Shown here: positions 30,345 to 33,483 of the stretch, piece by piece
Layout: every line of letters starts with the position of its first letter
Position numbering within the stretch: the first letter of the stretch is position 1
Origin: Bdellovibrio sp.
GTDB taxonomy: Bacteria; Bdellovibrionota; Bdellovibrionia; Bdellovibrionales; Bdellovibrionaceae
Assembly: GCA_036676395.1 (NCBI GenBank)
Contig: JAKFCY010000003.1
Coordinates: forward strand, 160,001 to 224,000
Length of the DNA stretch: 64,000 nucleotides
Direction of reading: 5' to 3'
Notes under the pieces: model-generated
Seen by the model: the letters and a program-made list of their open reading frames with translations, nothing else
Told to the model about the DNA's origin: nothing
The model's database searches: none
Translations under genes and position numbers: made by a program

Positions 30345-31265
30345 TTAGCTCTTTTCACGGATTTGATATCCGGCCAATTTTAAAAACACGTCATTTAAAT
30401 TCGCAGCCCGCACATAATAATGTGTGTTCTGAATATGACTTATAAAACTTTGTTTTGATTCGGTAGTTTCAAAAAAGATAAATATGTTGTCTTCATACTC
30501 TTGAAATTTAAGCCCTGCTTGTTCAACTTTACTTAACCAGTAGCCTTTTTCACTGCCGACATGAAGTTCGATCACTTCAGTACCTATATGCTTCAAGATA
30601 AGTTCTTTAGCTGTGCCCTGGTCTAAAATCACCCCATGATCGATCATAATAATGCGATCACAAAGGCGTTCAGCTTCTTCCATATAATGAGTCGTTAACA
30701 CCAGAGTTGTGTTATTCGCTTTTAAACGTTCAAAATAATTCCAAATCCATAAACGCGCTTGTGGATCAAGGCCCGTTGTTGGTTCATCCATTAGAATGAA
30801 TTGTGGTTTATGAATCAGTGCACGGGCGATGGCTAAACGACGTTTCATGCCGCCACTTAACGCTTCAACTTGTTTGTGCTTAAATTCAGATAATTTCATC
30901 TCAGCTAACAAATGTTCAGCTTGAGCATGCGCGAGATCGCTATCCATATTGTGATAGCGTGCGAACAATAATAAATTTTCAAGTGCGCTGAAGTCTGTAT
31001 CTAAGCAGTCGTCTTGTGGCACGACGCCGATGCGTGAACGAATTTGCGTAATATCATTTTTAGTATTTAAACCTAGAACTAATAATTCGCCAGCTGTCGG
31101 AATCACTTGGCCGTAGATCATTTTAATTGTGGTAGTTTTACCGGCGCCGTTAGGTCCAAGAATCCCGACGCATTCACCAGGCTTAATATCAAAAGAGATT
31201 CCGTTAACTACTGGAATACCGTCGTAATTTTTTTTAAGCCCAATGGCATTCAATGCTAAAGACAT
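30345..31265 (-). CDS. ABC exporter ATP-binding protein (NodI-like)
   Basis: GPNGAGKTT, VVPQDD.LD, LSGGMKRRL, DEPTTGLDPQAR, TTHYMEEAE. Confidence 0.92.
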   Translation of the reverse strand: MSLALNAIGLKKNYDGIPVVNGISFDIKPGECVGILGPNGAGKTTTIKMIYGQVIPTAGELLVLGLNTKNDITQIRSRIGVVPQDDCLDTDFSALENLLLFARYHNMDSDLAHAQAEHLLAEMKLSEFKHKQVEALSGGMKRRLAIARALIHKPQFILMDEPTTGLDPQARLWIWNYFERLKANNTTLVLTTHYMEEAERLCDRIIMIDHGVILDQGTAKELILKHIGTEVIELHVGSEKGYWLSKVEQAGLKFQEYEDNIFIFFETTESKQSFISHIQNTHYYVRAANLNDVFLKLAGYQIREKS

Positions 31266-31282
31266 GACATAAGACTAACAGT

Positions 31283-31566
31283 GGATAAACCTAACAGCAA
31301 TTCCATGTTCGCCAATAACTTCCGGGGATTTTAAGTCCCTACCTTGGTCTTGATTACAAATCAAAATCTAGGAGTAAACGTGCAGAATCTAGATGGCTAA
31401 ATACTTTTAATAACTATGACAATCATTAAGATCATCATAATTAATCGCAAAATTTCTTTAGAAATACTTAAAAGGCGACGATAACGTAAATACTTTGGTT
31501 TACGCATGTCGAACCTCCTTCCGCAAATCGGAAGTTTGGCATAACTAAAAAGCTGTTAGGCTATCC
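31283..31566. repeat. Imperfect long inverted repeat flanking a small ORF (arms 31283-31324 and 31529-31566)
   Basis: GGATAAACCTAACAGC...GCCAATAACTTCCG versus reverse complement of right arm GGATAGCCTAACAGC...GCCAAACTTCCG. Confidence 0.8.
31397..31507 (-). CDS. Unannotated 36-aa basic/hydrophobic peptide, candidate type I toxin
   Basis: MRKPKYLRYRRLLSISKEILRLIMMILMIVIVIKSI*; AAGGAGG SD 6 nt before ATG. Confidence 0.75.
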   Translation of the reverse strand: MRKPKYLRYRRLLSISKEILRLIMMILMIVIVIKSI

Positions 31567-31588
31567 GTCTAGCAGCTTTTGCATTTTT
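31503..31588 (+). ncRNA. Candidate cis-antisense antitoxin RNA (~80 nt)
   Basis: Possible TTAAAA-17-TACTTT promoter inside the peptide ORF; covers start codon and SD; ends in a + strand terminator hairpin. Confidence 0.5.
31548..31588 (+). terminator. Intrinsic terminator of candidate antisense RNA
   Basis: AAAAGCTGTTAG-9 nt-CTAGCAGCTTTT with a U-G pair valid only on the + strand, followed by GCATTTTT; no + strand gene nearby. Confidence 0.6.
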
Positions 31589-31597
31589 AAGGCCTTA

Positions 31598-31634
31598 AAA
31601 TAAAAAACCCGGTTATTACACCGGGTTTTTATTT
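31598..31634 (-). terminator. Intrinsic terminator of typA (potentially bidirectional)
   Basis: AAAAACCCGG-loop-CCGGGTTTTT. Confidence 0.85.
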
Positions 31635-31659
31635 AACTGGGATTATAAATCGACACTAA

Positions 31660-33483
31660 TTAGTCTTTGTTAGATTTTGCTTGTTTAGGGCGTTTGTGTG
31701 GATCTAATTCTTTTAAACGTAGACGAATCGATTTTGGAGTCACTTCGATAAGTTCTGTTTCTTTGATCCATTCCATACCAAATTCTAAAGTCATTGGTTT
31801 AACTGGAGTAACACGAATTGCTTCGTCTGAACCAGACGCACGAACGTTCGACATTCTTTTTGCTTCTTGAATGTTAACGATCATATCGTTGTCTTTAGCA
31901 TTTTCGCCTACGATCATACCTTCGTAAACAAGGTCGCCGTCATTCACGAACATTCTGCCACGTTCTTGCTTATTCCAGATCGAGTAAGCATTTGCTTCAC
32001 CTTGACGATCTGAAACCATCGCACCATTGATACGAGAATTGATGTCACCACGGTACTCATCGTAACCGTCGAAGTTTGTATTTAATAAACCAGTACCACG
32101 AGTATCTGTTAAGAACTCAGAACGGTAACCGATTAAACCACGTGAAGGAATACGGAATTCTAAACGAGTACGGCCTGTACCTTTTTGAACCATGTTCGTC
32201 ATAACACCTTTACGCATACCTAACTTCTCAGTTACGGCACCTACGTAAGGATCTTCGATATCGATAACTGCGTGTTCAAACGGCTCTAACTTTTTACCGT
32301 TTTCTTCTTTGAATACAACCTGCGGTTTAGAAACTAATAATTCGAAACCTTCACGACGCATTTGTTCAATCAATACGCCAAGTTGTAATTCGCCACGGCC
32401 AATAACTTTGAAAGCATCAGTTGCAGATGTTTTTTCTACGCGGATTGAAACGTTATAAAGTAATTCTTTTTCAAGACGTTCTAAAATTTTACGAGACGTT
32501 ACTTGTTTACCTTCTTGACCCGCGAACGGACCATTATTAACCGAGAAGATCATACCAACCGTTGGCTCATCTACTTTGATACGTGGAAGTGGACGTGGAT
32601 CAACCGCTGAAGTAATCGTATCACCGATCGTGAAATCTTCGATACCCGCGATAATCGCCATGTCGCCCGCGCCAATTTCTTGAACCGGAACCTGAGAATT
32701 TACTACGTATTGAAAAAGCGCAGATACTTTCACTTTTTTCTGAGCGTTTTCTTGAATACACATAATGTCGTCGCCAACTTTAACAGTACCTGCACGCATA
32801 CGGCCCATTGCTAAACGACCAACGTAGTCATTGTAACCAATGTTAGAAACCATTAATTGCAATGGTTCATTTTCTTTAATTGTTGGAGGAGGTACCATAT
32901 TAACGATTGCATCATAAAGTACTTTTAAGTTTCCAGTGTTAACTGCTGGATCAAGTGTCGCCATACCATCACGCGCGATCGCGTAGATTGTCGGAAAATC
33001 ACATTGTTCTTCGTTAGCTTCAACGTCGATAAATAGATCGAATAATTCGTTGTGCACTTCTTGGATACGAGCATCTGAACGATCGATTTTGTTGATAACA
33101 ACGATAATTTTAATGTTTTGTTCTAAAGCTTTTTTCAAAACGAAACGAGTTTGCGGAAGTGGACCTTCTGAAGCATCGCAAAGTAAGATCGCGCCATCAA
33201 CCATGTTAAGTACGCGTTCAACTTCTCCACCGAAGTCACTATGTCCCGGTGTATCGACAATATTAATTTTATAATCGTTGTAAGTGAAAGATGCATTCTT
33301 CGCTGCGATCGTGATTCCGCGTTCTTTTTCAAGATCCATTGAATCCATCAAACGTTCTTGAACGGCTTGGTTTTCACGGAATGTTCCGGCTTGTTTGATT
33401 AAGTGATCAACTAAAGTTGTTTTACCGTGATCGACGTGCGCAATGATTGCGATATTTCTAATTTTCTTTGGATCTTGAATCAT
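31660..33483 (-). CDS. typA: Translational GTPase TypA/BipA
   Basis: IRNIAIIAHVDHGKTT, DTPGHSDFGGEVER, GRGELQL, IEVTPKSIRLR. Confidence 0.98.
   Translation of the reverse strand: MIQDPKKIRNIAIIAHVDHGKTTLVDHLIKQAGTFRENQAVQERLMDSMDLEKERGITIAAKNASFTYNDYKINIVDTPGHSDFGGEVERVLNMVDGAILLCDASEGPLPQTRFVLKKALEQNIKIIVVINKIDRSDARIQEVHNELFDLFIDVEANEEQCDFPTIYAIARDGMATLDPAVNTGNLKVLYDAIVNMVPPPTIKENEPLQLMVSNIGYNDYVGRLAMGRMRAGTVKVGDDIMCIQENAQKKVKVSALFQYVVNSQVPVQEIGAGDMAIIAGIEDFTIGDTITSAVDPRPLPRIKVDEPTVGMIFSVNNGPFAGQEGKQVTSRKILERLEKELLYNVSIRVEKTSATDAFKVIGRGELQLGVLIEQMRREGFELLVSKPQVVFKEENGKKLEPFEHAVIDIEDPYVGAVTEKLGMRKGVMTNMVQKGTGRTRLEFRIPSRGLIGYRSEFLTDTRGTGLLNTNFDGYDEYRGDINSRINGAMVSDRQGEANAYSIWNKQERGRMFVNDGDLVYEGMIVGENAKDNDMIVNIQEAKRMSNVRASGSDEAIRVTPVKPMTLEFGMEWIKETELIEVTPKSIRLRLKELDPHKRPKQAKSNKD

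Follow-up and report, generated by a model that had tools for sequence, protein, structure and literature searches.

The DNA analyzed here, which we call the window, is a stretch of 64,000 nucleotides (nt) from Bdellovibrio sp. (assembly GCA_036676395.1, contig JAKFCY010000003.1, positions 160,001-224,000 of the forward strand). It contains an intergenic gap between two minus-strand genes, typA (33483..31660) and the gene of an ABC-transporter ATPase (31265..30345), in which the terminator of typA (31630-31603) is followed by a minus-strand module consisting of a small open reading frame (ORF) for a peptide of 36 amino acids (aa) and a series of RNA structures (Table 1). A reading of the sequence alone had previously proposed a toxin-antitoxin locus of type I at 31283-31590, and these limits agree with the homology limits, 31281-31588, obtained from a second copy in the same genome (G000:C2:214557-214861), which is 86% identical over this part of the window. 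The module forms a discrete, stand-alone unit of approximately 305 nt, and the setting of the second copy is unrelated: it lies downstream of a 162-aa ORF and is convergent with a 409-aa ORF, whose product we take, by eye, to be isocitrate-dehydrogenase-like.

Table 1. Coordinates of the module and of its coding and RNA elements in the window (SD, Shine-Dalgarno sequence; H1, hairpin at the 5′ end; UTR, untranslated region; MFE, minimum free energy).
Feature	Position	Strand	Basis
Whole module (peptide mRNA unit)	31281..31588	-	Homology limits against the second copy in the same genome, 86% identity
36-aa ORF MRKPKYLRYRRLLSISKEILRLIMMILMIVIVIKSI plus stop	31397..31507	-	Exact sequence; 22-peptide alignment; pN<pS; predicted helix
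SD AAGGAGG (31514-31520) and overlapping upstream hairpin CUUCCG/CGGAAG	31514..31534	-	Sequence, folding
Intra-ORF anti-SD (GCCUU in codons 11-12; SD partner, GAGGU)	31472..31476	-	RNAalifold
Long-range helix, 5′ arm (loop and 3′ arm of H1, then 5′ UTR as far as CUUCCG)	31529..31578	-	MFE folds, 23-copy duplexes, covariation
Long-range helix, 3′ arm (tail GCUGUUAGGUUUAUCC and CGGAAGUUAUUGGC)	31283..31324	-	MFE folds, 23-copy duplexes, covariation
Hairpin H1 (mRNA: 5′ hairpin, with the 3′ tail as alternative partner of its loop and 3′ arm; plus strand: terminator-like)	31548..31580	both	
Conserved 5′ box, mRNA sense AAGGCCTTAAAAATGCA	31580..31596	-	Most conserved nucleotide block across all subfamilies
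Candidate antisense RNA covering start codon, SD and 5′ UTR, ending at the U-rich tail of H1	31493..31590	+	Fold, T-rich tail
Hairpin inside the ORF, AUUAUGAUGAUC/GAUUGUCAUAGU	31413..31441	-	RNAalifold: 12 pairs, compensatory changes, many G-U
3′ UTR stem-loop presenting the conserved loop CUGCACGUU	31366..31394	-	Loop: 22-copy alignment; stem: MFE fold
Conserved 3′ UTR hairpin UUGAUUUGUAAUCAA	31350..31364	-	RNAalifold: 8 pairs, nearly invariant
Conserved 3′ UTR hairpin GGGACUUAAAAUCCC, 7-nt loop	31325..31339	-	RNAalifold; nearly invariant

The ORF is present (31507..31397) with the very sequence that the sequence-only reading had given. Its product is of the membrane type, with a cationic N-terminus and a hydrophobic helix; AlphaFold2, supplied with an alignment of 22 sequences, predicted a single helix covering residues 4-35 (mean predicted local distance difference test score, pLDDT, 86.2). 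The consensus of 22 peptides reads MRKxxYLRYRRLLxISKExLRLIxMILxIIIxIxSI, and both the SD and the AUG are conserved in the alignment of the 22 copies. Among the 19 copies with 36 codons, the proportion of nonsynonymous differences (pN, mean 0.239) was lower than that of synonymous differences (pS, mean 0.547) in 171 of 171 pairs, which come from related copies and do not represent 171 independent tests. Judging from these comparisons, the peptide ORF is under purifying selection. By sequence and prediction it also has the small size (<60 aa) and hydrophobicity looked for in the peptides of type I systems. Searches of Pfam and NCBIfam each yielded no family at E≤10, in line with the earlier statement that the peptide could not be assigned to a known toxin family, and the ESM Atlas returned only unnamed clusters, with a score of 0.83 that lies under the meaningful level. 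Of 1.84 billion protein representatives searched, 47 clusters matched at E≤0.001, mostly with lengths of 33-40 aa, and none of the 18 cluster members inspected carried a name.

Complementarity of about 40 nt between the two ends of the putative mRNA had been claimed as well and proved to be real: it is seen in exact patches (31552-31560 with 31290-31298 and 31529-31536 with 31317-31324), in the MFE fold and in covariation. Folding of the minus-strand transcript 31283-31590, a check proposed at the time, joined the ends at -92.1 kcal/mol, compared to a mean of -63.3 kcal/mol for shuffled sequences (z = -5.70; 0 of 100 shuffles as good); overall, the fold of the mRNA strand reached z = -5.7 to -6.0. 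Each of the 23 copies examined pairs its 5′ region with the tail of its 3′ UTR (-25 to -48 kcal/mol). On the 5′ side, H1 takes part with its loop and 3′ arm, joined in many copies by the remainder of the 5′ UTR; the duplex of L039 is located elsewhere and is doubtful. The stem sequence is wholly different in L030, L021, L022 and the third copy of the G000 genome, and the tail changes along with it. In an alignment of 22 copies, 78.9% of the helix cells were paired versus 69.3% in shuffles, none of 500 shuffles reaching the observed pairing, and controls with slid partners gave 28-43%; three distant copies were partly misaligned in this alignment, which acts against the test. Both sides had changed in 11 of 15 helix pairs, so the covariation check, likewise suggested earlier, speaks for the helix. 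Cognate 5′ and 3′ ends paired at a mean of -30.8 kcal/mol versus -22.7 kcal/mol for swapped ends, and RNAalifold, applied to 10 copies, recovered the same long-range helix together with a pairing of the start region with codons 6-8.

The pairing is also specific to one strand. The helices contain 44 internal G-U pairs and no A·C mismatch on the mRNA strand versus 10 G-U and 11 A·C on the opposite strand. Of the 23 copies, 18 have the more stable duplex on the mRNA strand and 4 on the opposite strand; in the remaining one, the two strands differ by no more than 0.1 kcal/mol. Since this asymmetry is specific to the mRNA strand, the DNA-level inverted repeat of a miniature inverted-repeat transposable element (MITE) is ruled out as the explanation of the complementarity; the sequence-only reading had named such element ends as the finding that would overturn it, and the strand-specific G-U evidence argues that the arms are something else. 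As far as comparison of the copies can tell, we conclude that the two ends of the peptide mRNA do form a long-range RNA helix whose pairs covary, i.e., the phylogenetically supported 5′-3′ long-distance interaction that belongs to the architecture of the hok and aapA mRNAs. A U-run after the long-range helix, which might make it the terminator of the mRNA, occurs by a rough measure in only 7 of 22 copies.

A second set of predicted pairings involves the SD. The perfect SD AAGGAGG reported in the sequence-only reading is found 6 nt ahead of the AUG (31505-31507), and so is the CUUCCG/CGGAAG hairpin overlapping it (31518-31534). The motif ACUCCU at 31370-31375, which had been interpreted as an anti-SD, is present in the 3′ UTR but is unconserved in the paralogs and, hence, not a conserved anti-SD. 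Pairing of the SD with codons 11-12 was kept in 10 of 10 sequences, with alternation between G-C and G-U (RNAalifold). According to thermodynamic prediction, the unpaired probability of GGAGG is 0.03-0.06 in every form of the mRNA containing codons 11-12, and only the nascent chain of 83 nt reaches a value as high as 0.34. A translationally inert primary transcript with a sequestered SD, as expected of a type I system, is thus predicted. Copies of the genus g24 have another upstream anti-SD, CUCCUGU...ACAGGAGG, and a long-range helix of 15 bp with one G-U pair; the overall plan is the same.

H1 was examined on both strands. On the plus strand the hairpin is followed by GCATTTTTAA and was called terminator-like, as had been recognized before; at least 6 T stand in the 10 nt behind it in 19 of 22 copies when the plus strand is read, compared to 2 of 22 for the mRNA strand. 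The H1 stem sequence is fully replaced, with pairing kept, in L030, L021 and C3b. In W, L025 and others, A·C mismatches of H1 on the mRNA strand are G-U pairs on the plus strand; these mismatches weaken the local hairpin of the mRNA compared with the long-range helix and leave the hairpin of the plus strand intact. The plus strand folds into two hairpins between 31500 and 31595 (z = -4.31), within the region of the candidate antisense RNA. In W, L002 and L014, a stem specific to the plus strand, AUGUCGAAC/GUUUGGCAU, contains two G-U pairs and shows compensatory changes; it is not general over the 23 copies.

Next to H1 lies the 5′ box, which in mRNA sense can also be written as GG-N3-TAAAAATGCA or as a AAAAATGCA box. 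It may contain a -10-like TAAAAAT for the mRNA, may represent a sigma54-like GG-N10-GC element, or may simply be the U-rich tail of H1 on the plus strand. Sigma54 promoters of the -24/-12 type have a GG 10 nt upstream of a GC, a spacing that the 5′ box shares, and the genome carries rpoN and approximately 12 activator genes. The sigma54 reading is nevertheless weak: over 23 copies, GG is found in 17 and GC in 16, and the two occur together in only 11. The box also holds a conserved ATG, from which an upstream frame starts; its length varies widely, between 2 and about 30 codons, and in the L038 subfamily it is in register with the ORF of the peptide.

Further structures are conserved in the 3′ UTR. 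The GGGACUUAAAAUCCC hairpin with its flank (31320-31349) comprises 30 nt that are 100% identical in G045, a genome of another family, and the hairpin region shares a stretch of 13 identical nt with the anticodon arm of the tRNA-Leu(UAA) encoded in the genome of the window. Its loop varies among the paralogs (CUUUAAA, CUCUAAA, CUUCAAA), and the strongly conserved hairpin with flank is also present at L021, L022, L023 and L037. ARAGORN found no tRNA in the window, nor in four loci holding only the 3′ UTR motif.

Paralogous copies, a search for which had been recommended, do exist in the genome. Besides the copy at 86% identity, a nucleotide profile of 21 copies detected a third, divergent one (C3:85496-85691), likewise in an unrelated setting, with a 40-aa peptide. 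Of 61 related genomes, DNA searches gave matches in 12, the highest number in a single genome being 7, and full-length relatives of the module were found in other genomes. A profile built from 22 peptides detected the family in 93 of 384 genomes of the order, spread over eight families (33 of 51 genomes in g1 and 23 of 44 in g24). In an even draw across the phylum, 27 of 401 genomes were matched, all of them in f1, f6, f10 and f11 of the same order; families outside the order gave no matches (e.g., f22 with 0 of 100, f25 with 0 of 57 and f18 with 0 of 34 genomes). Five complete g24 genomes carry one copy at a conserved site approximately 12.6 kb into the chromosome. In G139 (L092, C2:71700-73200), three copies are arranged head to tail with a period of about 355 nt, and the two peptides that could be read fully differ at one residue. 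No module was found in G102 at the HD100 coordinates of 5 of 8 attack-phase small RNAs, as given by Karunker (2013); G102 was taken to be an assembly other than that of the paper, so the coordinates need not correspond, and this result neither links the module to these RNAs nor separates it from them.

The orthologous site between typA and the ABC-transporter gene shows different stages of the module's history. The module is intact in G016, and in G036 it has lost the 5′ UTR, the SD, the start codon and the first codons. In G018 (L051, C11; approx. 1484-1501), with a typA 98% identical to that in the window, 16 nt replace the module (window 31282-31597), and 11 of these are identical to the hairpin arm of the module's 3′ UTR. 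Because of this remnant of 11 nt, the site in G018 is best read as the scar of a deletion rather than of a clean excision, and not as a site that was never occupied. No target-site duplication is visible when the filled site is compared with G018. Two more distant relatives, G027 and G026, have a typA-ABC junction without the module. Other decayed copies mostly retain the first 120-150 nt (L029, L031, L035, L040, L101), and this commonest kind of decay product retains exactly the part that a 5′-overlapping antisense gene would occupy. A short form was observed in another family at L023 (G052:C2, approx. 1465-1545), where the 5′ box AAAAATGCAAAAGC nearly abuts the conserved 3′ UTR hairpin and no ORF is present; it might have arisen by deletion or might represent an independent small RNA.

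On the whole, we consider it probable that the locus is a chromosomal copy of an undescribed family of type I-toxin-like modules, which among the genomes searched is confined to one order of Bdellovibrio-like predators. That the modules form a new, type I-toxin-like family is well supported; a toxic peptide and an antitoxin are suggested by analogy with known systems. Tandem arrays and decayed copies are counted here as typical of type I loci, and the loss of the start codon or of the hydrophobic half in decayed copies gives an indirect hint that the peptide might be toxic. The sequence-only reading had likened the locus to hok/Sok and AapA/IsoA on the strength of a combination of features, of which the peptide ORF, the 5′-3′ helix (found to covary) and the sequestered SD stand, and the ACUCCU anti-SD and the plus-strand promoter are unsupported; a 5′ hairpin competing with the helix is a further hallmark of such mRNAs. 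As the comparison of copies shows, a minus-strand mRNA of approximately 300 nt encodes the 36-aa peptide, and its 5′ end (H1 with its loop and 3′ arm, and the remainder of the 5′ UTR) pairs with the last 45 nt or so. The SD is predicted to be paired first with the CU-rich arm upstream of it, in the nascent chain, and subsequently with codons 11-12. By analogy with hok and aapA, the full-length mRNA would be kept as a stable reserve that is not translated, and translation would follow its processing or unfolding; the peptide would lodge in the inner membrane and do harm if produced in excess. Again by analogy, an opposite-strand small RNA that ends at H1 and its U-rich tail, or another factor, would keep the peptide silent.

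Several observations weigh against this interpretation. In silico 3′ truncations of 20-110 nt left the SD paired, and the same was true for 5′ truncation (0.03-0.06 unpaired); therefore, the long-range helix is not predicted to gate translation, unlike that of hok or aapA, and may serve stability or correct folding of the mRNA rather than direct gating. Concerning an antisense RNA, no sigma70-like site was called on either strand in 31000-31900. The promoter that had been placed at 31468-31496 on the plus strand is unsupported, because its hexamers are 13-14 nt apart and no promoter was called there. A conserved plus-strand promoter could not be singled out either: the hunt for conserved -10-like hexamers failed as the AT-rich hydrophobic codons yield such hexamers on both strands, and no -35 element is conserved. 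By eye, a TTTAGA-17-GATAAC pair, which shares positions with the most conserved codons, is a weak candidate for a plus-strand promoter. The T-rich tail of H1 might equally well be the -10 element of the mRNA itself or belong to a sigma54-type promoter. H1 itself lacks a strand bias (11 G-U and 11 A·C), and the hairpins of the 5′ UTR are mixed, being better on the mRNA strand in 14 copies and on the opposite strand in 9 (n = 23). Of the available RNA data, five metatranscriptome runs contain small shares of the stretch, and the four examined gave cover of typA; run X2 alone had two low-depth, unstranded contigs at the locus (31324-31467 and 31528-31807), which give no information on transcript ends and possibly represent RNA of a relative or DNA. 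Missing cover in the other runs carries no weight. No module was matched in plasmid and phage collections. Finally, the charge of the peptide is N-terminal, and many type I toxins differ from it in the placement of charge.

These points would suit an ordinary gene for a non-toxic small inner-membrane protein, either regulatory or stress-induced, with an mRNA structured for stability and translation control and with no dedicated antitoxin. The coding and mRNA-structure evidence fits such a gene equally well, no antisense promoter was found in the promoter scan, the RNA contigs are unstranded, and the SD is paired in all predicted forms of the mRNA containing codons 11-12; furthermore, the conserved chromosomal site in the five g24 genomes is housekeeping-like. 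We nonetheless regard this explanation as rather unlikely, since the spread of the module is patchy both within g1 and g24 and in its number per genome (0 to 7 matches), since tandem arrays and recurrent deletions of the start codon or the hydrophobic half are typical of selfish or toxin loci, and since a hairpin with T-rich tail faces the opposite strand in nearly all copies.

A related possibility, which we rate as improbable, is a toxin system specific to this lineage of predators that lacks a cis-antisense antitoxin. Transcription would start in sigma54 fashion at the GG-N10-GC box with the help of an activator, and silencing would be brought about by the 5′-3′ lock together with a conserved host factor acting on the near-invariant hairpins of the 3′ UTR, among them the one that reproduces the anticodon arm of tRNA-Leu(UAA). 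In that case, the peptide would act as a regulated effector in the life cycle of the predator or in stress-induced dormancy and would not be part of a classical addiction module.

A non-autonomous, MITE-like element, whose terminal inverted repeats mimic RNA pairing of the two ends and whose ORF is fortuitous, would account for a multi-copy unit of approximately 305 nt that has sharply bounded homology, a patchy distribution and inverted arms close to its two ends, as well as for a site that is occupied in one genome and nearly vacant in a close relative. This reading is largely refuted by the sequence comparisons, and we give it very little credence. G-U pairs accumulating on one strand only are unexpected from inverted repeats at the DNA level, the 5′ arm starts about 10-20 nt inside the unit, copy number is low (at most 7 matches per genome), and the comparison with G018 indicates deletion by its interior remnant and shows no target-site duplication; the ORF is under purifying selection in every pair of copies compared.

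The genes on either side provide the remaining context. The start codon of the ABC-transporter ATPase gene lies 16 nt past the module on the same strand and has no recognizable SD (window 31250-31281), and in relatives without the module it lies approximately 20-45 nt from the stop codon or terminator of typA; therefore, the gene seems to rely on transcription from upstream. A leader or attenuator, with the ORF as an upstream ORF regulating the ABC-transporter ATPase gene, would agree with this arrangement, which is the same in G016 and G036, but is highly improbable given that other copies adjoin unrelated genes or form tandem arrays and that the typA-ABC junction is kept without the module in G027, G026 and G018. 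The terminator of typA (31603-31630) is a symmetrical hairpin that an A-run precedes and a T-run follows, and is therefore terminator-like in both directions. A search of Rfam with the locus gave 29 matches at E≤10, none of them at the gathering score; the best of these sub-threshold matches are the rimP leader (31.8 bits, cut-off 47) and AgrB (30.4 bits, cut-off 40), and all of the weak matches in this region are driven by this bidirectional hairpin.

Bdellovibrio-like predators are being developed as 'living antibiotics', and if the peptide is toxic, the module would offer a handle on growth arrest or on plasmid-free gene stabilization in these bacteria. Covariation support is unusually clean, which makes the folding pathway directly testable, and the family marks small genes that have been overlooked by annotation. 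As far as a full-text search of the literature covers them, no such locus is described for Bdellovibrio-like bacteria; by title and abstract, the papers returned deal with other organisms. In their supplementary table, Fozo et al. (2010) list no type I locus of any known family for B. bacteriovorus HD100, and the term 'Bdellovibrio' is absent from the main text of the T1TAdb paper (PMC8594479). That paper counts 24 toxin families and 13 antitoxin RNA families in Rfam; the module resembles the families of T1TAdb and Rfam in having an mRNA of 150-400 nt that encodes a peptide of 20-60 aa (PMC8594479).

As far as the consulted sections of PMC6733600 describe them, hok and aapA mRNAs have a primary transcript that is non-translatable, an SD held by an anti-SD, a long-distance interaction that joins the 5′ and 3′ ends, and transient or metastable 5′ hairpins. 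Compared with hok/Sok as described there, the module likewise has a small membrane peptide encoded on a highly folded mRNA, a 5′ hairpin competing with the 5′-3′ pairing, a downstream anti-SD holding the SD, coupled covariations that support the fold, and chromosomal copies that are often inactivated (PMC6733600). On the other hand, its peptide is shorter (36 aa) and, with no match at E≤10 in either Pfam or NCBIfam, does not belong to Hok/Gef. A mok-like frame of conserved length is absent, as the upstream ATG opens 2-30 codons; the Sok-like RNA is only a candidate, 3′ truncation of the mRNA is not predicted to free the SD, and the host belongs to a different phylum.

The comparison with aapA/IsoA is one of architecture, not of homology. 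The aapA mRNA finds the final partner of its SD in the 3′ end, whereas that of the module is predicted in codons 11-12 and its 3′ end pairs with the 5′ UTR instead of the SD; an IsoA-like promoter was not identified at the module, where the antisense RNA is a candidate only. According to the parts of PMC6733600 and PMC8594479 consulted, both are chromosomal and multi-copy, encode a peptide of approximately 30 aa, and have a full-length mRNA locked by a 5′-3′ interaction. CU-rich anti-SDs are located upstream of the SD and inside the ORF in both, forming successive SD-sequestering hairpins, and the antisense RNA of aapA/IsoA overlaps the 5′ UTR and the start of the ORF, the layout which the sequence-only reading had proposed for the module (PMC6733600, PMC8594479). 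The family described here adds an independent case of the rare 5′-3′ long-distance-interaction design, which the text of PMC6733600, as far as consulted, otherwise describes for hok and aapA.

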